Source: Cyanidioschyzon merolae (Eukaryota). From it: a stretch of 64,000 nucleotides of DNA. The notes under the pieces are model-generated. The model had not been told where the DNA came from. It ran no database searches and saw only the letters and a list, made by a program, of their open reading frames with translations. Shown here piece by piece: positions 1,138-56,104 of this stretch (positions are counted from its first letter, which is position 1; every line of letters starts with the position of its first letter). The position numbers were made by a program, and so were the translations under genes. Location of the stretch: NCBI GenBank assembly GCA_000091205.1, contig AP006493.2; one strand, written 5' to 3'.

Positions 1138-1190
1138 CTGACCTGTAAGCGCCATGCGATGCCATGCGATGCCATGCGATGCCATGCGAT
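1138..1190. repeat. 10-bp minisatellite (GCCATGCGAT)n, about 4.5 units
   Basis: Direct reading: gccatgcgat repeated head-to-tail. Confidence 0.85.
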
Positions 1191-2754: not shown

Positions 2755-2929
2755 TAGCCTGATACAATGCCTGACAAAAGCACACGGTGGCTACACTCCA
2801 AGTCGACAACGGTGAACGGACGGAGAACTCCGTCTCCAGCGTTCAGATGCATGATCCATGCACGATCCGACGACGGCGCTGACGGGATTGTGCGCTCGGC
2901 GTATCGCGCTGTACGGCGGCTGCGGAAGC

Positions 2930-5900: not shown

Positions 5901-6650
5901 TCTTTCTTTTGATAGCTTCTTCATGTTGCGCCTGTGGCGCCGGTAGCGCTGCCTTCGCTTCCATGTCTCCGGCGTTTGCGCGTATGGCGGTGCGGTTGAC
6001 GATCTTGTTAAGTCGGTGGCATTCATCAATTCGAGTTTTGGTACGTCGTTTCAGGTACTGAGGTTTGCAACTGTTGTGTTCTGGTGCAAGCAGTCCCAGC
6101 TCTCCGGCAATCTTCTGATTCCCATCTACAAAATTGCTTCCCAATGGGTTTAAAGATTTGTATGCACGGCTTTTCGGATCTACAGCGCTGTGAGTAGGTG
6201 ACTGGGTTTGGTGGCAGCTTTCTTGAGTTCCCGCTGGGGGTGCCCTTTCGGGGGATGACTTGTGATGGGCTCGTTTGGGAGTTCTTCTTTCTATTCTTCT
6301 GTTATTTTTTCTTCTTCTTCTTCGGGCTCTTTCCTGAGCTACTTTCTCTGGTTACTCTTCTGGCATGTGGATCATGATGCCATTGTGTCTTTTCTTCTGT
6401 ATCCCGTTGGGCCTTTTTCGCTAATATAGATTCCTCGACTTGTATCAGTTTTTCATTACTGTACTGGTAATTCGATATCTCGTCGTCTAGTATCGAGGCT
6501 ATCCCACAAATATTCCATGATGCGAAACCTATCGAGTCGTAGCGCGTAAGGGAATAAGAATAGCGCTGCGGTACTCCAGAGATACGTTGTCGATTTAGAT
6601 GCACCCTCCACGGGGTGTGTGAACGCACATGCCACCAGCGCCTCCTGCAT
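2930..6650 (-). mobile_element. degenerate non-LTR (LINE-like) retrotransposon, full extent approximate
   Basis: Minus-strand ORF pieces carry reverse-transcriptase motifs (FIDFQKAFDTVPH, RGLRQGDxxSxLLFNIFINDL and a VADD variant of the F/YADD motif). The C-terminal piece has a Cys-rich knuckle (CPCCGDETPETLTYLGLQCPRW). A possible endonuclease start (SWNICGIAS) lies near 6.5 kb. The roughly 100-nt 3' tail (2935-3045) is repeated at 63.48-63.60 kb. Confidence 0.65.
3269..6144 (-). pseudogene. LINE ORF2 (endonuclease/reverse transcriptase) remnants broken into at least four frames (3269..4177, 4352..4795, 4779..5297, 5128..6144)
   Basis: The reverse-transcriptase motifs are split across overlapping ORFs in different frames, so frameshifts are present. 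Confidence 0.65.
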
Positions 6651-7499
6651 TCCAGTCGTTCACTGAGTGTCTGCTGCAGCGCTAGCGTAGAATCAGATGT
6701 ACATTAGTCAAGGTCGATTCAAATGCGACCTTTATCTTGCCGGACGTGTGAAGCTACCCGCAACCACAGGGGATACTCTATGAACCACCCTTTCAGCGGC
6801 TTCGTATCCGCTCCCCAAATACACAGGCGGGCAAGTCGCTTACTCCACTTTCGACAGCGAACATGCTGCCAGCCGTCTTCAAAAGTAGCCGCCGAAATTG
6901 TTTCCAAAGTTGAGGTAGCTACCCAAGGTAGGAGGTAAAACTGAGCCCGAGTTCGAGGATGGATCCAGGATTTGCGCCCGAACCTGCAGCGTTGTTTCGG
7001 GAGTGGCGGATGACTACCCAGAACTCTCGTCATCATTCTCTGCTGCTATTGCCGCCGCCATCCGTTCGATGCGGTCAAGGTCCCTGGAGAGGGCTTCCTT
7101 CCTCGTCGCCCGAGCACCCCGCGTTAACCCACTTTCAGAGTTTCTCCGCAAAAACCGGACTTCTTAGGCGCGCATACTGTATGGGGCTTTTAAGATAGTT
7201 GTTCTTTAATAAATAATTTGTTACTAGTTTGCATCACGCTCGGTGAGCGCACCTCGGAGATCCGGCAGGCATGAGACGCTACGCGTATGTCGCCGTTGAA
7301 GGGGAACGCGATCCTGATCTCTAGTATGTAGATCTAATGTAAAAGTTGTATTTTCGTTAACTTCATAGCCAAGTACAGTTTTTCAGTTCGTTTTTGTTTC
7401 AAACTTCATACAAGTCTAGTCAAGTGTTTTTTTGCAGTATATAACAGAAGCGTTCACAGAGCGTTGTTTTCCAAAAAAACTAAAAAAGGAAAGTTATGA

Positions 7500-9570
7500 A
7501 AACGCAAGTCGACGATCCTGGAGGCCCAGGGTCGCCGGCTGCCAGAAAAAAACAAAAAACAGTACCGAGTCCAGAAGAAAAGAAAGAGAAGAAGAACCGA
7601 AACGGGGACCCAACGTCGAAGGCGACAAGAAAGACGACTTTACGACGAGATGGTGGTGAAAACCTTTCTTCTTGGACATATCAAGGATCCGTACAGGGAA
7701 AAGTTGCGAGACGTTATCGAAATACGTGTCGACTCGTACTCCAAGAGTATTGTCAAGGCGTCGTCAGGACTGATGCATTTGGCGAGGGAGATGTATCGCG
7801 ACGTGACGGACATGGAAACGGTCGAGATTCCAGGCGAGTTCTTCGACAAGGCCTTTATTCGTCACGTGATGCATGGCACAGAGGAAGCGCGGAAGGAAAA
7901 ATGAGCTAGTGCATGCCCACCACGAAAACTTCGCGGAATTCTGCTTCGAGAGTAATCGATACAGCGGTGACGGAAATATTTACACATACGGGGTAATGAA
8001 GTACATTACGAACCTGAAGAACCATTTGACAGAGAACCTCGAACGTTTTATGATACGCGCCGTAGTTGCACTCTACCCGGGCCTCTCTCGCAACGGAAAA
8101 TGGGCGATTATCAATGGCATCAAGAACGATCGATAGTATGAAGATGAGGTCGAATTCGTCGACAAGAAGGCGTCACGCAGGAGCACGAATGAGGATTCCG
8201 TCATCCGCGCGGTTATACAAGAGCACCGTGCGGTACTGGGGTTGGCAAATCCAACAGACAAGATATCAGAGTTGAAAAAAGATAAGGAAAAATACTATCG
8301 CCTCGTCCTGCGCTATTTCGTGTTTCTGGATCGAGAGCTCGAACGCAAGGCGGAAATGAAGCTGAATGTAGAGACAAATGAAGAGTGGGAGAGACGGAAG
8401 GCTTTCCTAATGAGTAAGTGCCTCAGCGTCGTTCCGTTATGCAATATCCAGTCACATTTCGTGATTATCGACTCCACAGTCCTTCATGGCATAATGAGGG
8501 ACATCAGTCCGGTGTTCAATGTTAGCAGGGAGGACTTCACCGGCGAAAATCGGGAGACGTACTAGATGAGTATCTTCGATTTCAAACGTATCAAAGTCAG
8601 CAGGCAAAAGTTGTTCACTAGGATGATCGAAACCGATGGAGTAGCCATGTGTGTACACGATCGGCGGTTGAAGAAAGATCGTCCAGTTCCGCCCTCGGCT
8701 GCGCCCATCACGAAGGATGAAGAAAAGGAACAGGCGGATCCTGTGACGCAGGAGGTGCAGGACAACGACTTTGTTGTTTGCGCGGACCCTGGGAATACGA
8801 ATATCATAACCATTGCAGCACCGAAGCGTGCAGAAGATGGTACTGACGGCAACTTGCGTCAGAAAGACATGCGTCTTTTGAGGTTCTCGAGAGCGAGATA
8901 CTATCGAGAATCCGGTATAATGAATGCGAGGAAGAGAATTGCTGCATGGAATTCAGGAATGAAGGATCACCTGGAAGCTTTGAGCGAGGTGACGAGCCGA
9001 GGAGCGGACTTTGAAGCTTTTCGGAAATTCATGGAAGTTCGCATTGCGCATTGGGATGCGCTATGGGAGGAGTATACCAAGCCCCGGTGGGCTCGTTTGC
9101 GAATGAATCTATACGGTGGGAAGCAGCGGGCGTTCGCGAATTTTTTCAATGAGTTGAGTGCCCTCAAGGAGGATGAAAGTCAGAGGCCCGTAGTAGCATA
9201 CGGAGCAGGGCGCTGGAAGACCCAAAAAGGGACTACTCCAGCTCCAAAGACGAGGGTGTACAAGGAGTGTGCACGGCGTTTTGTTACATTACCTGTAGAT
9301 GAGTTCCGAACGTCCCATACACACCACGAGCTGGATTGTACACTTCAGAGGGTCGAAATGGAAAAGTGCCAGAGGAGCACTGAGGAAATACCAAAGTACG
9401 GTGCGCTGACGGAGGAGCAAATGTAAAGGAGGGCGAAAGTTCGTGGACTACTCGCACTGGTGAGTACAACTCCCAACGGCACGAAACGTATGGAGTTTGT
9501 GCATCGTGACTTACATGCCGCTATCAATATCAGGAAATGTGCGGTGCTGGAGAAAAGACCTCCAGAGTAG
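7500..9570 (+). pseudogene. TnpB/Fanzor-like RuvC nuclease reading frame (about 690 codons). It is interrupted by one apparent +1 shift near 7900 and by three in-frame stops (TAG at 8134, TAG at 8563, TAA at 9424), so it is either pseudogenised or intron-containing
   Basis: RuvC-I is present as [16 protein letters not shown] (a GxDxG-type motif). A candidate rearranged RuvC-II glutamate sits in LPVDEFRTSHTHHELDC. RuvC-III is present as RMEFVHRDLHAAINIRKCAVL. The N-terminus is very basic and NLS-like (KKRKRRR…). The ORF pieces 7650..7904, 7873..8136, 8242..8565, 8566..9426 and 9427..9570 lie in one frame apart from the 7900 shift. Confidence 0.6.
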
Positions 9571-9676
9571 ACACGAGAGAGTTTTGTGGGACACCCTCTC
9601 AAAGTGGAACTATATGAGAAGAAGTTGAAACCAGTAGTAGGTGGCCGGTCCAAAACGACGGGGAGGCCTCTGCACG
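9480..9676 (+). ncRNA. candidate omega-RNA scaffold of Fanzor copy 1. It overlaps the RuvC-III coding end and extends to the transposon right end; the putative guide would be 9677 onward (tcaattggagacttcttg…)
   Basis: At nucleotide level this block is conserved with the rc of 18185-18385 and with 55700-55896, and similarity ends at the same position in all three. Conserved segments include CTGAAACTGA, GGCGGCCAGTCAAAA and GGGAGGCCTCTGCNCG. Confidence 0.35.
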
Positions 9677-9925
9677 TCAATTGGAGACTTCTTGTCCAGG
9701 GCGCGGTTGCTGCCACTACTGGACACCGCTGGCGTCGTTCGACTTTCGATCGGTGCGCAATCGCGGCAGCGTCTCGACAGTCGCGATGCATCGCGTGCTT
9801 TCGATTCGAGGATGCCCGGTACCTGACCGGAGAGCACCATAGCAAAACGTTTCGACTGTTTATTCACCTTCCAGGCGTCTGGGTTTGTTCGTGTTTGCGA
9901 TAAATCTAGTGCGAAAAAAATAAAC

Positions 9926-10729
9926 ATGTCACCACAGGATACTTGCTGTCCGCCTGATAGCTGGCCCGCGCTCAAGGTCGACTACAAACCAAAGGGTAAG
10001 CTAGAGGATATCGGGAAAGGCCTGAAGGCGTACGTCGTTGGCAACGGGCCGCGAGCGGTTATCGCACTGAACGATGTATTCGGGATTGAAAGTGGACATT
10101 CAAAGGAAATTTGTGATGCAATTGCGGACAAGGGTTTCACTGTGGTCTTCCCGGACGTATTTCGGGGGAAACCGCTGCAAGTCAGCGATATGAGCAAGCT
10201 ATTCGACGAGCTCCCTGGCTGGGCGAAGCAGTTCGACTACGAGCCGGCTTTGCGTAAGGATGTGGTCGAGGTTATCTTGCCTTATCTCCACGATAAGCTT
10301 GGGTTCAAGAGCAACGACCAGATCGCGCTCGCAGGGTTTTGCTGGGGCGCGTTCATGTTATTCCACCTGGCAGGCGATACGAAGCTTCCCGGTGGGCCGT
10401 TTGCCTGCGGTGTCTCGTTCCATCCCAGTGTCCAGATTGAGGGCGTCTTTCAGCGGGATCCGCTGCAATTGATCGATCGGGCAACTTGCCCGCAGCTTCT
10501 GCTTCCCTCTGCAGGCGAGCCAGATTATATGAAGGAGGAAGGGGACGCGATCAAGAAGCTTCGAGCGAAGCCTTTCGGAGCTAGCTGCGGGGTGAAGACT
10601 TTCCCGAGCATGCAGCACGGCTGGGTGAACCGTGGAGACCGGAATGATCCGCAGGTTGTGAAGGAGGCTCAGGAAGCCCTTCAACTTGCAGTTGATTTCA
10701 TGATGCGACACACGAAGCCGAAAGCATGA
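9926..10729 (+). CDS. dienelactone hydrolase family protein (carboxymethylenebutenolidase-like alpha/beta hydrolase)
   Basis: 267-aa ORF with the characteristic layout of the dienelactone-hydrolase family: an N-terminal CCPP…KVDY…GK…Y.VG region, then VI…DVFG and PDVF.G.P. The stop codon is TGA. Confidence 0.7.
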   Translation: MSPQDTCCPPDSWPALKVDYKPKGKLEDIGKGLKAYVVGNGPRAVIALNDVFGIESGHSKEICDAIADKGFTVVFPDVFRGKPLQVSDMSKLFDELPGWAKQFDYEPALRKDVVEVILPYLHDKLGFKSNDQIALAGFCWGAFMLFHLAGDTKLPGGPFACGVSFHPSVQIEGVFQRDPLQLIDRATCPQLLLPSAGEPDYMKEEGDAIKKLRAKPFGASCGVKTFPSMQHGWVNRGDRNDPQVVKEAQEALQLAVDFMMRHTKPKA

Positions 10730-11456
10730 GCTAGAAACACACGACGTATGAGCGGCTTCGTCGTGGGCCAACTGCATGAGCTGGATGACGACTTTGCAGA
10801 TGCAAATTGAGTCTCTCTCTCTATAGGACCTGTATTTGCCACGGTGTAAAGGACAGTTGCATGAAATCTCGAGTCGCACCGATAAGCACATCGCAAATCC
10901 ATTCGGTTTCTTGGGATGTAGCGTTGTTCAGACGGTCCAGGGAGCCTCGGAAGCGCGACGGAACTCGCTATCCTGGCGAGCATCCATCATGCCGCATCGG
11001 ATTCTCCGAGTTCCACGAGGCCCAGCCCAGACTTCCCTTCGGAGATAATGGTCCGTTCATGCGATTCACAGGCTGCAGAGCCTGTCGTGAGCGCCCGAAA
11101 CGACGCCCGTTGCGTCAATATGATCGTTGTACGGATAGAGAGTGACTTTGCCGTACCCTGGTGGGCGTCGGCTCGATGAATCCACCTGTTGCGGATGCAC
11201 TGTCGATCGATAGGCACTTGGCCAGTCATTCGATCTGGAGCGTCCCGTAGGCGTTGCATACAGGCTTCGTACTCGCGTGCAGTGCACTTGATCCGCAACC
11301 GTCTCCATCCGAGTGCAGGGGCCTGCACATGTGGTCTGGTACCGAATTGCAGAGCGCCTTCAAGAACGCATATTATAAAAGGCGCTGGTAGAGGCGCAGG
11401 CTCTTCGCTTTCTGCGATAAAACATAAGCACTCTACTGGTCTACTAGAGACAGCGT

Positions 11457-12737: not shown

Positions 12738-15700
12738 AAGCGTCTGGTTGAAAGCAGCGCCTCTGTCGTGCGGCGTCTGGCCGGTCGGTACGAACTTGTT
12801 TCGTTACATGCCACCGGCCTCTGAAAGAAACGCTAATGCATGTCGTGAATGCTCCGAGCCCGACTATATTTGTTGCGTTTCGCATGAGGTTGCATGATTC
12901 TTCCCTGCGGGCCGGCTTCGGTGGCATCATTTCCTTTTGCGGAACGCAGACCTGCGGTGATCTGAACAGCAATCTCGGGACGAACTGTACCATTGCTTGC
13001 ATTCATTTTTTCTCACAGGTATTGGACGACTGGAGTATATCGTGTAGATAGGAGAAAGGTTGCAGAATGGATTTATGCTTGAAGCGCTAGCCCGCGAACA
13101 ACGGTCTACTTGACCACTTCAGGTTTTCTACAGTCCACAGTTAGATGGACTGTCATTCTCGAGGTCGGTATTCTGAACGTCGCGCTCCCGAAACACAACA
13201 TGACAAATGCTGTCTGCACCTACGACTGGCTCCTCGCTGATCACTTCCATGCCACATGTCCTCTAAGAAATACTGCCGAATAAGCTAAAGGATGTGTTGG
13301 GCGCGTGCCACTCTTACGAACAGTGATGAAGAGACGCGGATGGACAACTGAACAAGCATGCTTGTATGGCAGACTGTCGCGCATTGCGCAACACACTACC
13401 GAATCGAAGTGAAGCACGAAAGCGTATGATAGTTGGGGCAAAAGTTCGTCTCATTGTATGAGACTTGATTCGGTCAACATGCTCGCCCTGTATATATGTG
13501 CCCAAAGGGGCAAACCGCTGTTCTTACAGAAGAAACATGCGAGGATGACCACAACATCAGCGCTAGCGGCGATGCTGTCGATTAATCGCCTACTTACCGG
13601 CAAACGCACAGGATCGTTCAACATTTCATCCGTCACCGCAGCATACCTTGGTTTCTTTTTCGTGCTTTCCTGAATACTGCTCGTAGGAAACGCCGCTGTC
13701 CATCATGGAACACAAGTCAAGTCGTACGCGACTGAGATTATTGACGTTGTGCTACTCGTCGTGACAGTCTATTTTCGCTCGTTCAATCGCGTCGAAGTTG
13801 TATATTTGGTCGTCAAAAACCATTTTTTACCCTGTAAGTTCAAGAATAGAGTCGTTTCCATCCCCACGGCACCAAATTTCTGTGCCATATCCTCCACTGA
13901 CGTCTCGCTGCCTACCGTAACCAGCTCCGAACTGCGGTCGTGCTTCTCTGCTAGTGCGCTGGACAGATCAAAGACGCTCGCTTCGGTCTATGGGCGTGCT
14001 CGGGACGGAGCAGTTGAATACAAGGTCCCTGATGAGCAGTAGATACATTCATCGAGAATGCGAGCTTCCGAGCCACCGTCCACCCCATGCTTCTGAATCT
14101 CAAGAAAAAATTGTCTGTAGCGTGTAGCGACCAAACTTATGCCACGCTACCAAGAAAACGAGAATGGAAAGATTCCAACAGACAACGAAGTGCAATATGC
14201 TTTCGAAAAGGGACGGCAACGTACATGAAGAAAAGCCTGTTGGGGCGGAAGGATTTGCCGCAAGCAGTTGCCACGAAATTCGTTCTATCACACATCTGCC
14301 AGGAGAATCTACGAAAAATTGAGGCACGTGACACCATGAAGAATCGCCAGGCTGCTCACTCGTACAAAGCTCGTCTGGCTTTTCTAGCTCTAACGCACCA
14401 CGTAAAGCAAGTATACATAGGAGTTCTGGGCGCAAGGCTACTACTTAGCCGCATTTCTCCGGAATTATTTGAGAAAACGTTCATGCGATGATACAGCAGA
14501 TGCATGGAACAGAGGATGCAAGACAACCTGATCGTAAGATACGAAATGTGCACACCTAAGCTTCCCAGCATACCGTGACACGTTGCCAGGCAGCGTCGGC
14601 GATCGCTGCGATGCCTGCCATCCGAGTCCAGGACTCTATTCCGTGTAAAGAGCAGAGACGTGAGCGTCGAGCAGCATATCGTATGAGAAATATATCATGC
14701 TGCCGTCGAATGCCGTTTCGCTGATAGCCGGAGCGATCGGTGGTGGAAACGTCTTTCGAACGGAATCCATCATTGAATGGTAGAAGTTCTGGGAACTTTC
14801 CTAATGGGTTCGCGAGCAAGTCCTCAAGAGACGACGTTGGGCATTTTTCCTCGTCAGTCCAGCGGTCTGCGTCGCTTCGCCCACAACTTGCGACCGAAAG
14901 ACCGAAAAATGAAGCATGCGAGGTTTGAGCATGCTACCTGTAAGGGAACGAGAAGATTCCAGACTCGTGCGTATGCAGTGGATAATAGTATCGGTGCAAT
15001 GACCAACCCGTGTTCGAAGGCGTCGCGAATCATCTTGATGACGATGACGCAGCAAAGTCCAGCGGTACAGTGTCGAACGAGCCACTCCCTAGAGACTTCG
15101 GAGATTCCTGAAATCCGCATATACATTCGTAAGCTCTTGTTGCTGTGCTTCGCATACCCATGCCGCACAGCTATACAAGTTCGGAGACTATCGAAAAGCA
15201 GGAACATATCGGGTAATTGAGCGTTCCACTCTAATCCGACACACTTGCAGCGCACCTAGCTACAGGAACGCTTTTCCACCACAACAGCGGCGATGTTTGT
15301 ACGAAACCTGCACTCGTCTGCGATCCAGGAGCGACACCGAAATCGTGCGCTCGGAGCAAGGCCTCGGAGGAGAATCATCCCTGCCAGAGATCCGTGACGC
15401 TGCTCCCTACCGAACAAGACGTAGCAGTTCGCGTCATGTCCGGAATGCTGTAGCAAGTATCGCGATGATCGCTTCCTACGGTTTGTTGCAGTGCATTCAG
15501 GTTCAAGGAGGCTCAGCACGCATCCTCAAGGTTCACTTCAAGCGTGCATGTTCCATGTCATCGTATGTGAGGCAACGCTCAGTACGCAGCCGAAAGCTCA
15601 AGAACAGCCATCCAAGCAGGCATTGCTCAACGGGCGACAACAGACTCCAATGCATTTCACGGGGTTCCGTTCTTGGACGCTTCGGTGCAGGGATATGGAC

Positions 15701-16181: not shown

Positions 16182-17555
16182 TCAACGTGTTGGCTGGGCT
16201 CCAGCCGGTTCTGTGATGCGGGATGGAGTGTGCCGTTCGGGCGGCACTTGAATGCGCTCCAATCCAGCGAGAAACGGTCGAAGCACTTGCGGAATCGTAA
16301 CCGAACCGTCTTTTTCCTGAAAGTTTTCCAGAATAGACACAATCATCCGAGGCACTGCGCAGGCAGTCGCGTTGAGTGTATGCACGAAGCGCAGTTTTTC
16401 CGAAACCTGCTCTCTGTATCGGATATTCAGACGCCGGGCCTGGTAGTCGGTGCAGTTGCTTGCACTGCTGATTTCGCCAAAGGCGTTGCGACCCGGCATC
16501 CAGGCCTCAATATCAAATTTGCGATAGGCCGGGTTTCCCAGTTCCCGAGTCGGCATGTCGAGCACCCGATAATGGAGACCAAGTGCATCGAAAAGCTCCT
16601 CCTCGATAGATCGAAGCTCCTGATGAACTCGATCGCTTTCCTCTGGTCTTGAAAGCACGAACATTTCCACTTTGGTGAATTGATGGACTCGATACAGACC
16701 GCGCGTCTCGGTGCCGGCAGCACCGGCTTCACGACGGAAACAGTGACTGACGGCTGCCATCTTGATCGGAAGCTGCGTCTCGTCGAGTATCTCGTTCGCA
16801 TAATATCCCCCAAGCGGTATTTCCGCTGTGCCCGCCAGGCATAACGAGGTATCTGCCACCGAATATACTTGAGACGCTTCGCCGCGGGGCTGGAATCCGC
16901 AACCCCAAACCGTTTCCTCGCGCACAAGGTCGGGTGCGATCAGAGGTATGAAACCGTGCTTACCGGTAAGGTGCTGCATTGCCCAGTTCACCAACGCCAG
17001 CTCGAGCATTGCCCCTGCATTGCGAAGAAAATAGAAGCGCGCCCCAGCTACTTTGGCGGCGGCCTCGAAATCCACTATATCAAGTCGCTGCGCCAACTCC
17101 ACATGGTCTTTCGGCGAAAAGTCTGTAAAATCACGAGGCTTGCCCGCCATTCTCAAGAGTCGGGCTTGATCCTCGCCGCCTACAGGAGCATCAGGATGGG
17201 TCCGGTTGGGTATCCGTACTGCTTCTGCATAGAGTTGTTGCTCGGTCTCGGCAAGTTCAGCCTCAAGCGCAGTCACTCGCTCTTTCAACTGCTTACCAAG
17301 TGCGATACACTCGGAGCGCTCCTCAGGCGAGAGCTTCTGCATATTCTTCATGCGGGCTGCCACCTCGTTGCGCTGTTTTCGGACTAGATCCACCTCCGCC
17401 GTAAGCGCGCAGAAACGCTCATACAGCTGCACTACAAGGGTGGCGTTGACGTCGACTCCGCGCCGCTGGATATTCTCCTGGACCTGCGCCAAGTGATCTC
17501 GTACGTACCGAAGGTCGACCGGTGGCGGCGTGCCAGACACTCGCGTCAGCATCAT
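16182..17555 (-). CDS. SARS: seryl-tRNA synthetase (class II)
   Basis: Class-II motifs and core are clear (…FIPLIAPDLVREETVWGCGFQP…, CFRREAGAAGTETRGLYRVHQFTKVEMFVL). The listed ORF extends upstream to 17822, but homology begins at MMLTRV…, so I placed the start at 17555. An upstream organellar presequence cannot be excluded. Confidence 0.85.
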   Translation of the reverse strand: MMLTRVSGTPPPVDLRYVRDHLAQVQENIQRRGVDVNATLVVQLYERFCALTAEVDLVRKQRNEVAARMKNMQKLSPEERSECIALGKQLKERVTALEAELAETEQQLYAEAVRIPNRTHPDAPVGGEDQARLLRMAGKPRDFTDFSPKDHVELAQRLDIVDFEAAAKVAGARFYFLRNAGAMLELALVNWAMQHLTGKHGFIPLIAPDLVREETVWGCGFQPRGEASQVYSVADTSLCLAGTAEIPLGGYYANEILDETQLPIKMAAVSHCFRREAGAAGTETRGLYRVHQFTKVEMFVLSRPEESDRVHQELRSIEEELFDALGLHYRVLDMPTRELGNPAYRKFDIEAWMPGRNAFGEISSASNCTDYQARRLNIRYREQVSEKLRFVHTLNATACAVPRMIVSILENFQEKDGSVTIPQVLRPFLAGLERIQVPPERHTPSRITEPAGAQPTR

Positions 17556-17820
17556 GTTTGTTGGAGTAGCGCAACGGCTATCAGAATGTCGACAACGAAA
17601 CGCACTGGGTCGGAAACTGGTGCCGTCACCGAGCCAGCCTCGCATTCGGTACGGACGCGTTGCCCGTGCCTCCGCAATGGACCCGGCAACTGCTGGATAG
17701 CCAGTACGAAGCACTCGCAACCAGTTCCCTGCTGATTGGATCCATCGCATTCTCTTTCTTAAACCTATCGAATGTACGAAGGAGGTGAGCGATCTTTCCT
17801 CGCCTCCACGAGCAGGTTCC

Positions 17821-17950
17821 ATGGCTCACCACCCAGCGCTACAGCTTCTGGTGCACTGCAACAGCTTCTGGTGCACTGCAACAGCTTCTGGTGCACTGCA
17901 ACAGCTTCTGGTGCACTTCAACAGCTTCTGGTGCACTTCAACAGCTTCTG
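17821..17950. repeat. 20-bp minisatellite (CAGCTTCTGGTGCACTGCAA)x6, with the last units diverged
   Basis: Direct reading. It lies in the 5' flank of the seryl-tRNA synthetase gene and about 235 bp beyond the right end of Fanzor copy 2. Confidence 0.9.
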
Positions 17951-18184
17951 GTGCGAAGCGCAAGCACGAAGGGCGCTTGTACTGAGCGTTCGCCGGCGAT
18001 GATCCGGGGCGCCGGCACGCCGCATGAAGAGGTGCTCGGGTGGATCGCGGGATACTGCACCTATGGCTGGAGTGGGGATCTGACGCCCGTGAAAGAAATT
18101 GGACCTGCATAACCACCCAGACGTTATAGATGAGGACAACGATACATGTTTGATGGCCATGGAGGGTGAATATGTATGTATTTA

Positions 18185-18385
18185 CGCGCAGAGGCCTCGC
18201 AGCCTTTTTTGACTGGCCGCCTTCGATCAGTTTCAGCTTCTCGTTGTATCCGATGAGCCTGAGAGGCTGCCCAACCAAGTCACATCGCGTCAGCTCTTGG
18301 GGTATCGTTTTCAGCACCGCACATAGCCTGATATTGAGTACAGCGTTAAAATCCCGGTTCACGAACATCTCGCGTTTATAGCCTC
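18185..18385 (-). ncRNA. candidate omega-RNA scaffold of copy 2; the putative guide is the flank below 18185 (minus-strand reading: taaatacatacatattcaccctcc…)
   Basis: Its reverse complement aligns with 9480-9676 and 55700-55896, and the conservation boundary falls at the same place. Confidence 0.3.
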
Positions 18386-19297
18386 TGTTAGAACGCGCCA
18401 TTGCAAAGAAAGCTGGAACTCGTGCCCTCATTGCCATTTGGTGCTCAGTCAGCTCTCTGTCATTTTCTATCGCACAAGCGATCCACTGGCGTGTCTCTAT
18501 GCCGGCCGTCTGAAGTGCATATGCCCGCTCGTCCCAGAGATTTTTTAATCTTTGAAAGCGGCCGCACTTGTACACACCCATAGGTGAGGAACTTCTCGGA
18601 AAGACAAGGATTTACGCAGGATAGACGAAAGATGCTTCGGTGCTACCGTGGTGGAAGCTTTTGCGATTCGCCCATCGGAGCTATTATGATATGTGTCATG
18701 ATAGAAAACGCTCCTTCTATAGATATGGACCTCGGAGCCTAAGGAGGAATGAAAAGCAGCTCTGTCCCCGATAGAATCAGCAAAAGCTCGAAAGAGAATG
18801 TTGAAAGGCCACGGTGTCCAATAGATGCACGTCGCAAGAAGTCAGAGAACAATCTTCCATGATTCGACGAGTTGGGAGCTAATGTATACGCCCTCTCTAC
18901 GAGAGAAACTGAGGCCGACAAATGCATCTACCAAAGTTCGAACAGATGATGATGTCGGTGCTCTCTTCGAGTTCGTTGTACGTACAAAGAACTCCGTCTC
19001 TGCGAATACCCGTATACGCTTCGACCGTCTCATCCGAGGAAAGTATGATCGACTGAAAAAAAACAACCGACGTTCCTGTGCTTCATGCAGATCGCAACGT
19101 TCCAGGAACACTAGAGTTGCGATTTCGATGGACCATGACCGGGTGTGAACCAGGACTCTTTTTATGCGACTGTATCCGAGTGCTTTCAGGGCTGCACGAA
19201 CAAGATCTTGAGAATCAGAAATGCCACTGCTGGCTATGATCATCGCTTTCGCTTTTCTTACGATGATCAACGGGTCGTTTTCTACCATTGACCGCAA
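18300..19297 (-). pseudogene. truncated and decayed Fanzor nuclease ORF of copy 2 (C-terminal RuvC-III portion plus an upstream segment shared with copy 3)
   Basis: ORF 18842..19297 (minus) has …VRAALKALGYSRIKRVLVHTRSWSIEIATLVFL…, matching …VRVALETLGHSYVKRVLVHAQSSSTEIGTLVFL… in copy 3. No RuvC-I motif is present. The listed ORF 17826..18581 reads through the element end into the minisatellite and is spurious beyond about 18185. Confidence 0.45.
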
Positions 19298-20283
19298 GCA
19301 CCTTCAAGAATATCAGAGTTTGTCCCAGAGAGCATATCCTTCCTTCTTTCAGTGTCCCTGTATCGTCAGAATACAATGGTATGCCTGACATGAAAGATGA
19401 ATGCAGTCCTGCGCTGCACTGCTCAGTAAAGAATATATATGTATCATACAGGCAATTCGACTAGGATCTAAACCGATACATCGCATTTTTTGTTTTCGAT
19501 CTCCTGCGACACACCAAATCGGGGATGAAACACTTTTGACTTGAAAGACGCTACGAGGCCTTGAGTTTTAAACTAGCGTGTTCTGCATACACATCAAAGA
19601 GCATTTCCCGATTTCTCATTTCTTGACGAAGGTTATCGCGCCATGCATTCGTAGTATTCGACCCGCACTTGAAGTACCTACCGGTCAGGTTTGAAGTCCA
19701 ACGGATGCGACATACTGCGTCCCGACTTTGCTCTAGGCAAGCCTGAATGGGACCGGACTCGCTTCAGCGGCTCCCTTAAACAGCCTCTCGCATTCCAAAG
19801 GCCGGACTTGTTCCTTCGCTGAGGCGCTGGAACACATCTCCCGTACCGTGCAAACTTTAAAATGGAAAAAATGCTACGCTCCACGTCTTGCGACCCGAAA
19901 CTGCGTCGTCTCCGCAGTGCGTTGGGCAGGCGTTGCGCCCAGAGAGATGCACTGACTTTCGTTAAACTCCAGCCGCATCTCGAAAATACAAGAATCGATA
20001 CTCGCTGTGTCTGTCACTTGGTGGCAGTTTATGCGCCCAAGTAACGAGGAACCGACAACGATGCGGTTCACTGAGGTCTAACCTGCAAGCACCAACGCAC
20101 AGATCGAAAGCCGCATGTGCGGCAGTGCAAGGCCGGAGGCGCTTCAACCCTGCCCCAGCTGATACTTTTTGACGCCTTCATCACAGCGCATGAAACGCTG
20201 AGCTTGCCTTTATCGCACCTGGACGCTAAGAATGTCCTATTCCTCGAACAACTTCAAACAGCGCAGCGCTGGACCAGGAACGC

Positions 20284-22362: not shown

Positions 22363-22853
22363 CAGCGACGTTGTGGCTCGCGACCTCTCCACCCTGTGTG
22401 CACACGCCCGTAGTTCTCGAATTATGCCCCGCTGCCGATGCACAGTTCTGAATCTGAGCACTCGCTGGTTGCAGGGGAAGCAACGCCGCTGCTTCCCAGG
22501 AACGTCAAAGCCCCGAGCGCGAACTTGAACTGGGAGCTGGACAAGGCCAACGAATGCTGCCTGAATGAGTCCGGTACTAGGCATGCAGTTGCTCGCAGAG
22601 GGTATGCTCTCGGCACGGGTTGCTTTGAAAACCAGCGCTCGCTGTCGTGCGATAAGGGTACGCACCGGAGAGTAAACGCTTGGAATGGGTAAATTTAGAA
22701 TGGAGACGCTTTCGCGACGAAGGCGCAGGTGCGTTATCAGGTCGCCGGCGTATGCGCAGGGCTGCTACGGACAGCGCGTGGTCGCTTCGCGGCGTCGGGG
22801 TACCGAGATCGATGTCCTTAAAGTGCAGTTATGTACAGAAACATCCGTTGGGC

Positions 22854-25438
22854 TATAATTATACAACTATATCCTATTTGTTTCCGTTCGTGTTCGCACA
22901 GGCACTCAGTGCCCGGCACGCACCGCGAGCGACTGGAGCACTGTCGCGCACAGCTCTGATGCTGGCAAAGATAGCTCGCGATACGCCGCATTATTTCTAC
23001 AAAGCAGTCATTCTGTGGACACTACGACAATACACCGCCTGTATCGTTATCGGTATCCTGAACATCGTGCGCCCGCACCAAAACACGTTCAACAATCTCT
23101 ACGCAACTGCCTACTCGCCAAGCCATTCCAGCTTATGCCTTCTCGAAGGAATGCCGCGCAACAGGCGCCAGCATCTGAGGTTCGCGTACCGTTGCATCGC
23201 ACGACGACAACGAGACATTGAGGGTCAGCGCAGAAGGCAGGTTTCTGTGCGAGACCGTCGCGCTGCGCACATGACGCCGTCAATGGCGTCCCTCAAGGAG
23301 CATACATATCCCAGAAGCGACAGGAGTTCACCTCGCTCGATTCCAGTCCACGACGGGAGCACTGCTTGGCCTGTATGCAGGCAACCAAAACGTGGCAATC
23401 CGCTGTTCGCAAGGAAGCGACATGCGCGTACGACAAAAAGAACAGCACCAACAACAACAGCGGCAGCAGCAGCAGCAGCCCAGGAGCCGATGCTGGCGAG
23501 CGGTCGCCTACAAACCGCCACACAGACGGCGTCGTTCCTCACCTCATCCTGCGTTGAAACATTTCGAGGCTTCTCCATCGCGCTTGCTGATGCCCTGTCC
23601 TTGGACAGCGCCGCCTAGCACAGCACGGGAGAAGCACCGGCGTACGCATCTGGGATTCGTGTTCAGCTGCTCTTTGTAGCAGTTTGTTTTCCGCGGCCTC
23701 ATCCAGCGGCATGCGGCCTGTCTCTGCGTCGCCAACAACCGTTTCTACGCCCACGGACACGTTTCGAAAACACGACTCGCTCGCGTCCCCGGCACCGAGA
23801 CAAGCCGGACGCCGTGAGCGATAGCGTAGCACCGTCCCCGAGAGACTCTCGCCTCCTTGATGGACGTCGCGTCCGAATGGTCGCTGAACCGTGATGCCTG
23901 GCTTCCCGGCATCTCGCGCTACTCCGTTTCCGTAAATAGCGCTGGGCAGCGCATACCAGACTGCCTCCGGGAACGTGAGCGCCCCCCGCTCCCTCAACAG
24001 TCTAGTGGATATGGTCCATGGTTACGAGACCAGGACCCATGAGGGTACCCGCTGAGACACTCTTTGTCGCGTGTGGCCTTCCTGGTGCGCGATGCCCGGT
24101 CTATCTACGCAGCAACCAGGACACATTCGTACTGCTCCGCAGCGGGCATCGGCCGAGCTCGTCCAAGCTCTTTCGCCTACGCGCTCGGAGCCCAAAGACG
24201 TTTACAGCGACCACGGACACTGACCGAATATCACTTTGGATGTGCTCTGTGAGACCCAGGCCTGCGTCTCGAAACAGGACTCGATTTACGCCCATAGAGA
24301 TAGATGAAGAGCAAGTATTCAGGGCGGGCGTGGATCCCGAGTTCGAGTGCGTCACGACTGCCGCCGTGCCTCCAGCCCAGCGGGGCAGAACCGGCGATCA
24401 GCACCGCGAGCAGGTGTCGCTGCTCAGCCTGCTCCACGACTCGGTACCAGCGGGCGTCGTGCACCACACACACACCAGGAGGCGTACCAGCAGGTGCAGT
24501 GACTACCTCAGGGGCTATCTCGGCAATCAAAGCATCCTATCGAGCAGCGGCGGATGCTTCGTGCAGTGCACTCAGAGCGCCTATACGAGCGTCCGAATGC
24601 AGCACGCGGACGCTTTTCGACACAGGTACATGACACCGTGCTGCTGTCGCCAATGGCATCGATTGTGCGGAGCCAAGGAGCGTACATCCACACCGCCTAG
24701 TTCGGTGCGTCGGAAACGGGAATCATCGACGAGGCGCGCGGTATGCCTGAAACCTCTGGTACGGGGTGTGCTTTTGGAGCACACGGGCTGCACTCGTGCT
24801 CCTTCGATGCGAGCGTGCGACAGGCACAAGAATCGATTCCGTACAGATCCCGTCGACGAATGCACGACAACATACAAGTATCACGAACTGGGGTTCAGCC
24901 TAATCCAGTTCGAGAAGAAAAAGAGCATGAAACAGAGATCAATGCACGGGATGGTGTACGGGACGCCGAACGAACGTCAGATGGCGACAGCGTCAAAGTT
25001 CGGTGACCTCGTAGAGCCTGAAACAGAGACCAATGCACCAGGTGGTGTACGGGACGCCGAACGAACGTCAGATGGCGACAGCGTCAAAGTTCGGTGACCT
25101 CGTTTGGTGCGAATGTGCCAGCACCTAGGCGCCCAGGCTCTTTCCATACTACGACTTGAGCCGCTCGATCAACACGCGGAAGCGAGTCTTGGTTTGAGTC
25201 GAGCGAGCTTTCGACGCAGTCGTTCAGTACTCAGTATCGGTGCGCTGCTGAAACGCTGATGACGCTCGATGGAAAACTCAGTGGTCAGCAGAGAGGGAGT
25301 TGGATTCCAGACTGGAGCAAGGCACTGGTATGGTGCGGTTGGGAAATCCCGCAATGCGAGAGCGGCTTGGGTATGCTCTGAAGACGATGTTCTTTGCCAA
25401 CAAGCGAGCGATAATGATGCTCCGTTATTCGATGTTCG
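22854..25438. repeat. large direct repeat DR1, copy A (about 2.59 kb, non-coding as far as I can tell)
   Basis: About 98-99% identical to 29305..31887. It contains a (CAA/CAG)n tract near 23440 and a 91-bp tandem duplication at 24930..25104. The listed ORFs inside it are low-complexity. Confidence 0.85.
24930..25104. repeat. tandem duplication of about 91 bp inside DR1 (also present in copy B at about 31380-31560)
   Basis: The unit aaacagaga(t/c)caatgcac…gatggcgacagcgtcaaagttcggtgacctcgt occurs twice head-to-tail. Confidence 0.7.
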
Positions 25439-29176: not shown

Positions 29177-29304
29177 TAGTTTTCGGGTAGCTGCTCAGGC
29201 GCCATACTGGCAGCAGCACAGCAGTCGATGAGGAATATGCATATTTATACAGCGATGTCTAGTAATGTCGCGGACGCTTCCTTGCAAGGAGTTGTGCATC
29301 TGGA

Positions 29305-49130: not shown

Positions 49131-49655
49131 CGTCCCCAGAAGCGCCCTCAGCCCTGTAAAGACAGTAGCTTGAGCGTACCGAACAGCTCAAAGTATTTGA
49201 TGCTGCACACGAGGAGTCAAGTTGCCGGTTAAGGTTCCGAACGAGTCGAGGGCCAAGAACGCCAGTTACGAGTTGCGCATCTTCGCGGTCCCGTTTACGC
49301 CCTGGTGCGGTGGAACGTGGACGTTCGTTTGGAGAATCCGCAAAAGGCCGCGAGAGTATCTCAAAGCCTCAGGGACGCTTCGGACGCGACTCTGCCAGGG
49401 AATGGGTGCAAGTATTGAAGAAATTTGGGATAGGTCGATATGATGCAGCCGCTGGTAGGGACCCCTGGCGTCGCAGAGCATGCGGCACGTGTGGCCCACG
49501 CTACACGTTGCCAGGGCAGCGCTCCAAGGCACAGAGACGATATCGGTATCACGAGACCCCGGTAGTGACGTGTGACAATAGCAGAGCGGGGAACGTGTTT
49601 TATGGTGTTGATTCGCTGGCCTAAACTCATTCATATCGAATGATGGAACATCATG

Positions 49656-54425: not shown

Positions 54426-54650
54426 GTCACCCCTGATCATGAGTGCCGCCACTGGTGCAACGCAAGTTGGTTTCGTCCCTGATGCGCGTAATCGAATACT
54501 TTTTCGCAGTGTAGAGCCGGAGATTGAAATCCCGATGCAGTGTACCGTATAGATCGCAGACGAACTGCCTGTAAGGTGTATTCCTTACTGAGCCGTGTAA
54601 CGATGACTGCGTTCCTCATCCAGGTCAGTCATACCATAGTAATCTAATGG

Positions 54651-55758
54651 TTGAGGAACACTGAAAGAAACAAGCACATGCGCACGGCGCCAAAAACAGA
54701 TATTCTCAAAGCGTGTTTGCGATCAACGGTAGAAAAAGACCCATCGATCACCTTGCGGAACGAGAAACTGACGGTGATGGCCACCATGGGCCTCTACATC
54801 GCTCAACAGCTTGTTCGTGTGGCCCTGGAAACACTGGGGCACAGTTACGTGAAAAGAGTCCTAGTTCACGCACAGTCATCTTCCACTGAAATCGGAACTC
54901 TAGTGTTCCTGGACGTCGCGATCCGTATAAAGCAGAGGAGCGTCGATTTGTTTCTTCAGTCGATGAGGCTTGCGTTGGACGAACCGTACAGAGCTGATAT
55001 AAGTATTGGCAGAGAGAGAGCCCATTGTATGGATGATTGAACTCGAAGAGAACGACAACATCATCTATTCTAGCTGCAGAGGATTCATCTGGCTGCCTCA
55101 GTTTTGCTCGCAAAGAAGGCTCATACAACAGAGCCCACTTTTTCGAGTCATTGAAGACTTTTTCCTTTACGTCTGGCGACGTCCTTCTATTGCACAATGT
55201 GGCGTTTCACCATTCCCCTTGCGTTCGAGCTTTTGCCAATTCTACCAGGGGGTAGAGCTGTTTTACATTCCTCTCTACGCTCCGTGATTCAACCGCCTCG
55301 AACAAGTGTTTTCTATCGTAAAACGTAATGATCGCTCCACTTGGCGAATCGCTGCGTGGCTCAGCACGGTGACACTGGGGCGCATGTCGTCCTTCTTCCG
55401 CAAGTCTTGTTCGCTCCCGGTAGGTCGTCACCTACGGGCATGAAAAAGTGCGTTCATGTTCAAGGAAAAAATCCAACGGAAATTTAAGGACATGAAAGGC
55501 AAGGATCCCGGAGAGCTGTCATCACCGGGTGTCGGAAATTCAAAAAATCCCCTGCTCGCCGACTATGGAGCGAATGAGAGGAGGGAGAAGAGGAGAGGTC
55601 GACGAGAAAAAGTGTCTGCCGTACCGGGCGATGTCGAGCCTATAGTGGCACTGAGAGCACGGGCTCTAGCAATCCTTGCATTGGTGAGTTCAACCAGTGT
55701 CAACAAACGCAAGGAGTTCATGACCAGAGACTTCAACGCTGTTATCAATATCAGATGA
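54651..55758 (+). pseudogene. decayed Fanzor nuclease ORF remnants of copy 3 (pieces 54651..55040 and 55456..55758; no RuvC-I)
   Basis: Sense-frame amino-acid conservation with copy 2 is about 60% over the aligned piece, higher than in the antisense frame. The RuvC-III motif is intact but the upstream frames are broken. Confidence 0.45.
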
Positions 55759-55896
55759 TGTGCGGTGCTGAAGACGAGACCCGAGGAGCTGACGCGAACG
55801 AACTTGATGGGGCAGCCTCCCAGGCTCGAAGCGTACAGCCAAACACTGAAACTGAGAACAAGCAGCCGGTAAAATAGGCTGGGAGGCATCCGCGAG
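55700..55896 (+). ncRNA. candidate omega-RNA scaffold of copy 3; the putative guide is 55897 onward (ggggcatctatttaccctgcatcg…)
   Basis: Aligns with 9480-9676 and with the rc of 18185-18385, ending at GGGAGGCATCCGCGAG. Confidence 0.3.
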
Positions 55897-56104
55897 GGGG
55901 CATCTATTTACCCTGCATCGTCGTAAAACATTTATCGTTCCATGCGAAGAGAGCGCGATCTTCATGGACCGCCTCGAGCACCAGGCGTCGCACTGATGGA
56001 TCATGGTCGTGATACCTCGCAGCTGGGCAAAACCACGTCTAGTCCGGTGAACAACCAGTTTCGTACGATTTGTTCGGACCCGAGTAGATCACACGTGGCC
56101 GGCA

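Follow-up and report, generated by a model that had tools for sequence, protein, structure and literature searches.

Decayed repeats of Cyanidioschyzon merolae that join a transposase relic to a Fanzor1 C-terminal fragment

Two repeats on opposite strands of nuclear DNA of the red alga Cyanidioschyzon merolae 10D, here called copies A and B, are probably dead copies of a ~1.43-kb DNA-transposon family that derives from a composite of a transposase gene and a Fanzor1 gene, with the known family CMe-1A of the same genome as the reciprocal deletion product. Neither copy retains any function; both are long dead and display ordinary transposon decay. All positions refer to the window, the whole stretch of 64,000 nucleotides that was analysed, and the features are collected in Table 1.

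Architecture of copies A and B

A sequence-only reading of this DNA had reported copies at 18.2-19.6 kb (minus strand) and 54.45-55.9 kb (plus strand) that are collinear with each other, and this was borne out by self-comparison and realignment. BLAST of the window against itself pairs 18138-19486 (-) with 54535-55939 (+) in two segments, one of 959 columns with 70% identity (E 1e-114) and another of 299 columns with 73%. Taken as a single alignment, the two copies are 66.7% identical over 1455 columns (E 3e-180), and MAFFT aligns them collinearly from end to end apart from one indel-rich stretch. An element does occupy the extent of 18185-19560 first given for copy A, with ends that become slightly wider after refinement with the family HMM, and the peptides cited at that time are present in the open reading frames (ORFs) 18842-19297 (-) and 54651-55040 (+). 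Self-BLAST also revealed that the window holds other large duplications.

Table 1. Positions of the repeats and of their parts in the window
Feature	Position	Strand	Evidence
Copy A, short family of ~1.43 kb (transposase relic + Fanzor1 C-terminal fragment)	18118..19549	-	family HMM (14 paralogs) positions 2-1418 of 1427
Copy A, Fanzor1 C-terminal fragment, corresponding to CMe-1 codons ~612-729	18184..18530	-	BLASTN, tblastn, Fanzor profile
Copy A, transposase relic, more decayed than that of copy B	18650..19481	-	transposase profile; outer coordinates extrapolated from family consensus
Copy B, same short family as copy A	54455..55945	+	family HMM (14 paralogs) positions 5-1409 of 1427
Copy B, decayed Tc1/mariner/IS630-type DDE transposase gene	54540..55416	+	transposase profile and Pfam DDE_3
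Copy B, Fanzor1 C-terminal fragment	55621..55893	+	BLASTN, Fanzor profile
Long copy, CMe-1A Fanzor1 element (consensus 650-3145), pseudogene without transposase	7237..9734	+	86.8% identical to published consensus
Transposase-deletion scar in long copy, short-family 5' terminus fused to spacer before Fanzor ATG	7376..7495	+	alignment of window 7340-7500, CMe-1A 781-915 and short consensus

Both copies belong to a short family in which a ~70-nt 5' terminus leads into a ~275-codon transposase; a short spacer rich in A separates the latter from the ~115 C-terminal codons of Fanzor1, after which comes a short 3' tail. Copy A is 80.2% and copy B 80.3% identical to the family consensus. Substitutions between them show a codon-position bias in none of the segments, and the copies decay neutrally.

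The internal ORF remnants, earlier ascribed to Fanzor, turned out to be a DDE transposase of the Tc1/mariner/IS630 type, as the DDE_3 matches of the consensus and of copy B reveal. In copy B a transposase profile matches 54543-54917, 54914-55246 and 55243-55416, which follow one another in frames of their own (E 1e-15 to 1e-31), and the frame-corrected translation matches Pfam DDE_3 (PF13358) with E 4.8e-15 and 56 bits, against a cut-off of 28.6. The start codon of this gene is now GTG, and the protein reads MYRIDRRR..., then a helix-turn-helix, DEA, LLLHNVAFHH and a decayed NPIE motif. Copy A is homologous to B over the full length of the gene, with profile matches at 18848-19447 (E 7e-22) and 18697-19065 (E 3e-8); Pfam by itself gave no match to its transposase region. 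The peptide VRAALKALGYSRIKRVLVH highlighted by the earlier reader is the helix-turn-helix region of this relic.

The transposase is detectable only through the 14-copy consensus and frame correction; run on the uncorrected ORFs, Pfam and NCBIfam found no match for A, for B or for the long copy. The translated consensus matches DDE_3 with E 2e-15 and carries the motifs DETCF, LLLDNVAFHH and PPYAPWFNPIE, with a D..D34E catalytic triad that is mutated in individual copies; no short-family copy combines an open transposase frame with an intact triad. Database homologues are DDE_3 transposases of 290-300 aa. With the IS630/Tc1-mariner DDE_3 transposases the short-family protein shares a DDE_3 match above the curated cut-off, an N-terminal helix-turn-helix, the DE(T/S), DN and NPIE motifs and the 34 residues that separate the last two catalytic residues, whereas it is short (~275 aa), decayed in all copies analysed here and accompanied by a Fanzor remnant in the same element. 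Since the short family has a transposase gene of its own, its description as probably non-autonomous is doubtful; what it misses is the Fanzor nuclease. A tblastx match between copy B and 13503-13730 was rejected as short-family homology, being unsupported at the DNA level, and represents another transposase relic.

The Fanzor1 tail and the long CMe-1A copy

In A and B, as in all complete short-family copies, only the C-terminus of Fanzor is found. BLASTN against the CMe-1A consensus matches copy A only at 2739-3088 and copy B at 2807-3084, both at 68% identity, and tblastn gives 48% amino-acid identity for the fragment in A. From the conceptual protein of the long copy only the last ~92 residues match, at 49% (A) and 48% (B) identity, and tblastn with the long-copy and consensus proteins detected no Fanzor sequence upstream of the tail in either copy. 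A Fanzor profile of 700 positions matched A only at 605-689 and B only at 633-688, so that RuvC-I and the RuvC-II glutamate are absent. Neither the profile nor tblastn found the RuvC-I aspartate (DPG motif region), and homology begins at codon ~612 (ELGCTLQ), right after E603, leaving out the RuvC-II glutamate (DEFRTS motif). RuvC-III is present as NRDFNAVLNIR in A (ORF 17826-18581 (-)) and TRDFNAVINIR in B (ORF 55456-55758 (+)). The previous observation that RuvC-III was kept and RuvC-I lost is thus confirmed, both by the RDFNAV(L/I)NIR motif and by profile matches confined to C-terminal positions.

The long copy belongs to CMe-1A and is a deletion derivative missing the transposase. Its conceptual protein (7650-9700 (+)) is interrupted by in-frame stops at 8134, 8563, 9424 and 9568 and by a frameshift near 7900. 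CMe-1A is a Fanzor1 family with a 3169-bp consensus and ~150 copies of ~80% identity to it; it has no terminal inverted repeats (TIRs), and its classification was unknown to its authors in 2013 (Bao and Jurka 2013, Mob DNA 4:12). With ~150 copies the family is abundant, as had been surmised from the window. Some CMe-1A copies have a still-intact Fanzor ORF (Bao and Jurka 2013), an example being P0053, with 752 aa.

Neither Pfam (queried with CMe-1, P0053 and P0092-95) nor the PDB sequences (searched with the CMe-1 protein, as single sequence and as profile) returned a match. As these sequence searches were empty, the assignment of CMe-1 to Fanzor1 needed structure prediction and Foldseek. The AlphaFold model of P0093 has a mean pLDDT of 61, with 70-85 in the RuvC core, and its top seven PDB matches are SpuFz, GtFz and PpFz (E 1.6e-10 to 1e-7, TM 0.44-0.56). 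Residues D431, E603 and D672 are invariant across the CMe-1 clade (alignment A2). The predicted structure places the CMe-1 clade within Fanzor1.

The proposal that A and B derive from the long copy or its family is contradicted by the restriction of the CMe-1A match to consensus positions 2739-3088. In the short family some 900 nt find no equivalent in CMe-1A, and A and B are not members of the CMe-1A family. They do have an internal deletion relative to a full-length Fanzor-bearing transposon, but they did not acquire it from the long copy.

Spread and origin of the short family

Within the window, nhmmer with an A/B profile or with the family HMM found no further short-family copies. When metagenome contigs were scanned with seeds from the 5' region of the two copies, 36 loci emerged, reducing to 14 distinct ones. 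These contigs represent strains with ~99% identity to the window and set a minimum copy number of 14; a single metagenome supplies 12 of the 14. All but three of the loci are collinear and 1.35-1.5 kb long, the exceptions being a group (L011-L014) that ends at family position ~907 and two loci cut by a contig end. Complete copies are 77-82% identical to the consensus and on average 66% identical to one another (range 59-70.5%), in a star-like pattern. The deletion junction is identical in all 12 complete copies among these 14 paralogous loci, which supports the view that it was the short form that was propagated. A 1-nt insertion within the transposase is common to 10 of the 14 copies, and much of the amplification may therefore stem from an already frameshifted, trans-mobilised master; the indels behind the shared frameshifts fall in homopolymer runs. 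We found the short family described neither in Bao and Jurka 2013 nor in the literature covered by a full-text search.

At the syntenic locus of Cyanidiococcus yangmingshanensis, the genes for serine-tRNA ligase and acetyl-CoA synthetase are separated by 789 bp, compared with 2462 bp, including A, in C. merolae. That 789-bp interval contains no transposase or Fanzor signal, and the Cyanidiococcus intergenic DNA does not align to the C. merolae interval holding A. Insertion of A thus appears to be lineage-specific. Contigs from JGI and Logan that are syntenic to the window come from ~99.3% identical strains and have both A and B, so that they supply no empty site. Genes of the window include those for serine-tRNA ligase, ALG3 and dienelactone hydrolase, whose proteins match C. 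merolae 10D proteins exactly.

Segments of the short consensus recur in CMe-1A. The 5' 72 nt correspond to CMe-1A 793-862 (local alignment score 30, against 11 +/- 1.4 for shuffled sequences), positions 978-1016 correspond to 869-908, up to the Fanzor ATG (E 4e-5), and positions 1014-1362 correspond to 2737-3088 at 80% identity. In the long copy, the first two of these are fused at the scar of the transposase deletion (Table 1). Judged from their consensuses, the short family and CMe-1A seem to have arisen from one ancestor by reciprocal deletions, and the previously unclassified CMe-1A can now be tied to an ancestor of the Tc1/mariner type. CMe-1A copies have a further ~140 nt ahead of the shared 5' segment, an extension that the reciprocal-deletion model leaves unexplained. 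The statement that A and B keep both ends holds in part: the 5' ~72 nt are shared with CMe-1A at the consensus level, but are internal there, and the last 45-80 nt differ. A TIR search of the short-family consensus ends gave no statistical support (score 10, against 9.5 +/- 1.7 for shuffles); judged by eye, the termini resemble the TIRs of two composite elements, L045 and L046. About half of the short-family copies, and also the CMe-1A consensus, have TA or TAG in front of the 5' end; the 3' end is placed within ~20 nt.

These two elements lie on metagenome contigs. L045 carries its transposase and an intact Fanzor1 of 698 aa between 32-nt TIRs (81% complementary, with TA at both ends). In L046 the transposase frame runs uninterrupted for 228 aa (DDE_3, E 5.8e-28) and the Fanzor1 has 702 aa; the element is collinear with the short consensus except for the deleted block. 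P0092 and P0093 are the Fanzor1 proteins of these two elements. At the protein level these full-length relatives are only 40-43% identical, and in C. merolae-like DNA no full-length copy was found that unites a transposase with a Fanzor of the CMe-1 type. Six further decayed Fanzor relics in the window each have a transposase relic on the same strand immediately upstream.

We infer the following order of events and mode of mobilisation. The ancestor would have been a composite transposon whose TIRs surrounded first a transposase gene and then Fanzor1. A single deletion, from the Fanzor start codon to an internal ATG, would have taken out codons 1-611 and created the short form, which would then have multiplied by cut-and-paste transposition, at first probably through its own transposase. 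CMe-1A would have lost the transposase while retaining the 5' terminus, the spacer and a complete Fanzor gene. Since then, all copies have undergone neutral decay.

Characterised Fanzors make their guide RNA from the 3' region adjoining the right end of the element (Jiang et al. 2023), and the 3' block of A and B had been proposed as a preserved omega-RNA module. We found nothing to sustain this proposal: Rfam gave no match on the block, RNAalifold returned -3.4 kcal/mol and no meaningful structure, and the short-family tail had a fold z-score of -0.72, that of CMe-1A one of -2.14. The 3' block is not conserved beyond the level of the transposase part (0.61-0.78 against 0.73-0.85). A short block, GGCGGYCGGTC, is common to the 3' block and the 3' UTRs of L045 and L046.

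These results bear on the possibility that the two families are a functional split, in which the short family (transposase and guide-RNA 3' block) and CMe-1A (RNA-guided nuclease) were co-amplified and depended on each other in trans. The deletions are indeed reciprocal, both families are equally old (~80% to consensus), some CMe-1A Fanzor ORFs are intact, and differences between the two consensuses in the Fanzor block lean to third codon positions (23/13/31 by codon position, p = 0.03). If it were true, the 3' block would be a stand-alone Fanzor guide-RNA gene on a mariner-type element, in a very compact algal genome. However, complete termini are not shared (CMe-1A is 140 nt longer on the 5' side and the 3' tails are unlike), so that cross-mobilisation by one transposase is not obviously possible; moreover, the retained block offers no evidence of an RNA element and all short copies examined are dead. 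We consider such a split quite unlikely.

Quite unlikely, too, is the strict form of the sequence-only reading, in which A and B are internal-deletion derivatives of CMe-1A that retain both ends and the omega-RNA module and were mobilised in trans by Fanzor elements. It would account for the last ~350 nt of the Fanzor ORF shared with the long copy, for the missing RuvC-I and RuvC-II, and for the occurrence of the short form at at least 14 loci, and it would agree with the 3' origin of the guide RNA in characterised Fanzors. Against it, a DDE transposase missing from CMe-1A makes up ~1 kb of each copy, the 5' homology amounts to only ~72 nt and is internal to CMe-1A, the 3'-terminal 45-80 nt are unlike, and the 3' block has neither an Rfam match nor structure nor raised conservation. 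Both the parentage of the copies and the identity of their 5' kilobase already contradict this derivation.

A chance chimera, in which an independent mariner-like transposon joined a 5'-truncated Fanzor fragment and was then amplified with no composite ancestor in its lineage, would fit the lack of demonstrable TIRs around both parts, the 3' tail unlike that of CMe-1A and the failure to recover a full-length CMe-1-type composite. We regard it as very improbable. The spacer between transposase and Fanzor matches the 40 nt directly upstream of the CMe-1A Fanzor ATG, which implies that, until the deletion occurred, a complete Fanzor gene lay downstream of the transposase. In addition, the short-family 5' terminus is fused to that same spacer in CMe-1A, and the same gene order recurs in L045 (within one TIR pair), in L046 and in the six other relics of the window. 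Segmental duplication as the source of A and B, suggested by their distance of 35 kb on one chromosome that has other large duplications, can practically be dismissed, because homology ends at the element ends with unrelated flanks, and the 12 other paralogs, at unrelated loci, are equally distant in the star-like pattern that refutes it.

Significance and comparison with known systems

The composite origin that we favour does not make A and B a new kind of system. Fanzor1 within Tc1/mariner transposons was already known, for example in PUl-1 and PGv-1 (Bao and Jurka 2013; Jiang et al. 2023, Sci Adv), and a Fanzor family of C. merolae has been known since 2013. Our analysis adds a second C. 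merolae repeat family, composed of a transposase and a Fanzor tail, and for the annotation of this model alga it accounts for a good part of its few intergenic repeats. The short family is also a natural case in which the nuclease gene was lost and the transposase kept, which argues against Fanzor being required for the spread of the element. With apparently intact transposase and Fanzor1 genes, L045 and L046 are better experimental candidates than the copies of the window.

Some derivatives of IS200/IS605 elements are non-autonomous, keeping only the ends and the guide-RNA region of a TnpB element; they have no transposase gene, and their structured ends are conserved. The short family resembles them in having lost the nuclease gene while keeping its 3' end, but it retains a transposase, and neither an RNA signal nor extra conservation was detected in it.

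CMe-1A and the short family inhabit the same genome, are of similar age and have in common the ~350 nt at the end of the Fanzor ORF, the ~72-nt 5' terminus and the spacer before the ATG. They differ in that CMe-1A has a 734-codon Fanzor1 and no transposase, whereas the short family has a transposase and Fanzor codons ~612-729. CMe-1A further has 140-790 extra nt on its 5' side, including TE-N2_CMe, and the 3'-most 45-80 nt of the two families are unlike.

Compared with elements of the PUl-1/PGv-1 type, A and B are short of 84% of the Fanzor gene, and in the C. merolae copies, whose 3' boundary is approximate, neither TIRs nor TA duplications could be demonstrated. The transposase of the short family is only 29% identical to that of PUl-1 across the catalytic core. 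The layout is nevertheless the same, with a transposase followed by Fanzor1 on one strand and a DDE_3 transposase with DD34E spacing, and it is shared by L045 and L046.

The repeat pair and its family

Three ORFs in the window exactly match proteins annotated in Cyanidioschyzon merolae strain 10D (852,849-bp chromosome), which shows the window to be nuclear DNA from a red alga whose genome is very compact. When the window was compared with itself, 18138-19486 (minus strand) paired with 54535-55939 (plus strand) in two blocks, one of 959 columns at 70% identity and one of 299 columns at 73%. In a single alignment these two repeats, copies A and B, are 66.7% identical over 1455 columns (E = 3e-180), with collinearity broken only by one indel-rich stretch. 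The peptides highlighted by the sequence-only reading and the RDFNAV(L/I)NIR motif were found in them, and their flanks are unrelated to each other. A ~57-60-nt tandem unit (95% identical) lies at 17838-17954, in the stretch that separates copy A from the 5' end of the serine-tRNA ligase gene. Elsewhere, a 338-aa ORF (5128-6144, minus strand) in the 7-kb, TE-rich spacer that precedes the dienelactone hydrolase gene resembles a piece of a retroelement, perhaps a reverse transcriptase.

Several hot-spring metagenomes hold strains ~99% identical to the window, so that a scan of metagenome contigs serves as a partial genome-wide search. Using an alignment of the A and B 5'-ORF translations, we obtained 36 loci representing 14 distinct ones, A and B included (12 of the 14 from one metagenome). 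With three exceptions, the loci match A and B collinearly over the whole length and measure 1.35-1.5 kb. Complete copies are each 77-82% identical to the family consensus, and pairwise identity averages 66% with a maximum of 70.5%. Divergence in this short family is thus star-like, its age is the same as that of CMe-1A, the Fanzor1 repeat family of C. merolae, and the likeness of A and B is simply joint membership of one family. The sequence-only reading had described A and B as probable Fanzor deletion derivatives, spread or at least retained in short form; the A/B alignment and the 14 loci confirm the repeat pair and its propagation, but the supposed Fanzor remnants, the parent element and the reading of the 3' block do not stand.

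Positions of elements, relics and genes in the window and in two metagenome contigs
Feature	Sequence	Position	Strand	Remark
Copy A	window	18118-19549	minus	family HMM
Copy B	window	54455-55945	plus	family HMM
Long copy	window	~7240-9730	plus	CMe-1A consensus 650-3145, 86.8% identity
Transposase relic, then Fanzor relic	window	13038-13829, 14243-14494	plus	
Transposase relic, then Fanzor relic	window	22973-23696, 24111-25194		
Transposase relic, then Fanzor relic	window	29424-30147, 30562-31643		
Transposase relic, then Fanzor relic	window	42634-41964, 41630-39562	minus	
Transposase relic, then Fanzor relic	window	52010-51768, 51536-49864	minus	
Transposase relic, then Fanzor relic	window	60599-59814, 59524-58548	minus	
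Dienelactone hydrolase	window	9926-10729		exact match to C. merolae 10D protein
Serine-tRNA ligase	window	16182-17822	minus	exact match to C. merolae 10D protein
ALG3 mannosyltransferase	window	56105-57568		exact match to C. merolae 10D protein
L045 element	contig from JGI 3300007033	420-3810		698-aa Fanzor1, upstream DDE_3 transposase
L046 element	contig from JGI 3300008963	~90-3470		702-aa Fanzor1, upstream unbroken DDE_3 transposase

A transposase gene joined to a Fanzor1 tail

The 14-copy consensus of the 5' kilobase reads as a Tc1/mariner (IS630-type) transposase. An N-terminal helix-turn-helix, which includes the peptide noted earlier (consensus form VRVVLKTLGYSRKK), is followed by the motifs DETCF, LLLDNVAFHH and PPYAPWFNPIE with D34E spacing, and the database relatives are DDE_3 transposases of 290-300 residues. 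Pfam DDE_3 matches the short-family consensus (E = 2e-15) and also frame-corrected copy B alone (E = 4.8e-15, 56 bits vs a cut-off of 28.6); copy A alone is too decayed for a Pfam match, and is homologous to B throughout. These matches identify the "internal ORF remnants" once ascribed to Fanzor as a DDE_3 transposase relic. The ~1.05 kb of A and B outside the Fanzor tail has no counterpart in the CMe-1A consensus, and a Fanzor profile built from CMe-1 (the CMe-1A protein) and its database relatives gave no match there in any frame. Since the transposase ORF (MYRIDRRR...) starts ~70 nt inside the 5' end, the "5' sequence" shared by the copies is the terminus plus the beginning of the transposase gene.

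Fanzor similarity is confined to profile positions ~596-694 in every complete copy. The consensus tail starts with ELGCTLQKVEMEK (CMe-1 codon ~612), ends with the ORF, and is 80% identical at the DNA level to the CMe-1A consensus. It contains RuvC-III only, the RuvC-I aspartate and RuvC-II glutamate being gone; RuvC-I had rightly been called missing from A and B, to which the long-copy protein aligns over its last ~92 residues only. The CMe-1 clade genuinely belongs to Fanzor1. The D, E and D residues are invariant in its alignment, and the best seven PDB matches to the predicted structure of P0093, an intact relative from a metagenome contig, are the solved Fanzor1 proteins SpuFz, GtFz and PpFz (E = 2e-10 to 1e-7).

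One Fanzor1 family has been reported for C. merolae: CMe-1A, with a 3169-bp consensus, ~150 copies each ~80% identical to it, no TIRs found, target duplications not determinable and classification left unknown, the first 635 bp being a separate repeat, TE-N2_CMe (Bao and Jurka 2013, PMC3627910). We compared the consensus from the supplementary file of that study with the window. It matches A at 2739-3088 only and B at 2807-3084 only (68% identity), so that the long copy, a CMe-1A member, was wrongly taken as the parent of A and B; it is itself a pseudogene with one frameshift and four in-frame stops. The CMe-1A copies of the window (7237) and of metagenome contig L047 (3675, intact ORF) begin at consensus ~648-650 and not at position 1, so the TE-N2 portion of the published consensus may not be integral to the element. 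TE-N2_CMe-like fragments (60-69% identical to the first 535 nt of the consensus) lie at 3083-3538, 10926-11195, 35255-35527 (minus) and 63839-64000, attached to no Fanzor sequence. The intact 752-aa ORF of L047 carries a ~77-nt consensus segment (2117-2195) in three tandem copies (L047 5221-5376), which makes the protein longer immediately before RuvC-I.

Guide RNAs of characterised Fanzors come from 3' sequence adjoining the right end (Jiang et al. 2023), and the block retained here accordingly has the expected position. However, calling it an omega-RNA-like module was an over-reading: the short-family 3' block has no Rfam match, the tail is no more stably folded than shuffled sequences (z = -0.72), no consensus structure was found across four lineages, and conservation of the block from copy to copy does not exceed that of the transposase part. 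The final 45-80 nt also differ from CMe-1A. A guide RNA from the retained block is unproven.

Composite relatives and probable reciprocal deletions

Two metagenome contigs, L045 and L046, each encode an intact Fanzor1 (43% identical to CMe-1), with a transposase 40% identical to that of the short family just upstream on the same strand. In L045, 32-nt inverted repeats flanked by TA enclose both genes; in L046 the translated part of the transposase frame (228 aa) is stop-free (DDE_3 E = 6e-28). Each carries ~160-200 nt of 3' non-coding sequence in which some blocks are conserved from one contig to the other, and these elements may be active. Collinearity of the short consensus with L046 is broken only at the block holding most of the Fanzor gene. 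Together with six other decayed Fanzor relics in the window, each closely preceded on its own strand by a transposase relic, they indicate that transposase-then-Fanzor1 is the normal layout in this lineage.

The relic-bearing regions have features of their own. Elements 13038-14494 (plus) and 58548-60599 (minus) give strong transposase profile matches (E = 4e-30 and 3e-29), and 12.8-16.1 kb is low in GC and without long ORFs. Segments 22851-25438 and 29302-31887 are direct 2.6-kb copies, 98.5% identical, each containing the decayed remains of a transposase gene and of a Fanzor1 from another family, with 91-bp tandem repeats at 24922-25103 and 31371-31552. Their identity is far above that expected from the age of the decayed genes, which suggests that they were duplicated locally or homogenised by gene conversion. 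A second direct pair, 39341-41401 and 49643-51703 (2.06 kb, 99.6% identical, 10 kb apart), contains a decayed Fanzor1 relic, the transposase relics lying just outside (41964-42634 and 51768-52010).

At the consensus level, three segments are common to the short family and CMe-1A. The 5'-terminal ~72 nt of the short family correspond to CMe-1A 793-862 (local score 30 vs 11 +/- 1.4 for shuffles), the 40 nt just before its junction to 869-908, ending at the Fanzor start codon, and its Fanzor tail to 2737-3088. The first two are adjacent in CMe-1A, so the transposase gene is exactly what CMe-1A lacks; the short family is without exactly Fanzor codons 1-611, with ATG at both breakpoints. The two families seem to derive from one ~3.3-kb ancestor by reciprocal deletion, in which the short family would have lost Fanzor codons 1-611 and CMe-1A the transposase gene. 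Where the two consensuses differ in the Fanzor block, third codon positions tend to be favoured (23/13/31, p = 0.03), which weakly suggests that the two lineages split while the Fanzor gene was still under selection.

Decay, age and classification

Substitutions between A and B are equal across the three codon positions in every segment, RuvC-III included, and no short-family copy combines an open transposase frame with an intact triad. In-frame joins of neighbouring segments differ from copy to copy, which makes an intact ORF in the founder probable. A 1-nt insertion is common to 10 of the 14 copies, and a broken master mobilised in trans is conceivable. Gene order in Cyanidiococcus yangmingshanensis (VWRR01000010.1) is conserved with window 2000-27000. 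The Cyanidiococcus spacers syntenic to those with transposon relics are short (~1.1 vs 7.3, 0.8 vs 2.5 and 0.7 vs ~4 kb in C. merolae) and show no transposase or Fanzor signal, including at the sites of A and the long copy; the insertions thus either postdate the split or were lost on the Cyanidiococcus side.

The A/B element is an ancient, dead, Fanzor-truncated Tc1/mariner transposon, and its analysis usefully supplies CMe-1A with a classification and an origin. The A/B element belongs to a known Fanzor1-carrying class. Over the catalytic core, its transposase shares 29% identity with that of PUl-1, a mariner element already described as bearing Fanzor1.
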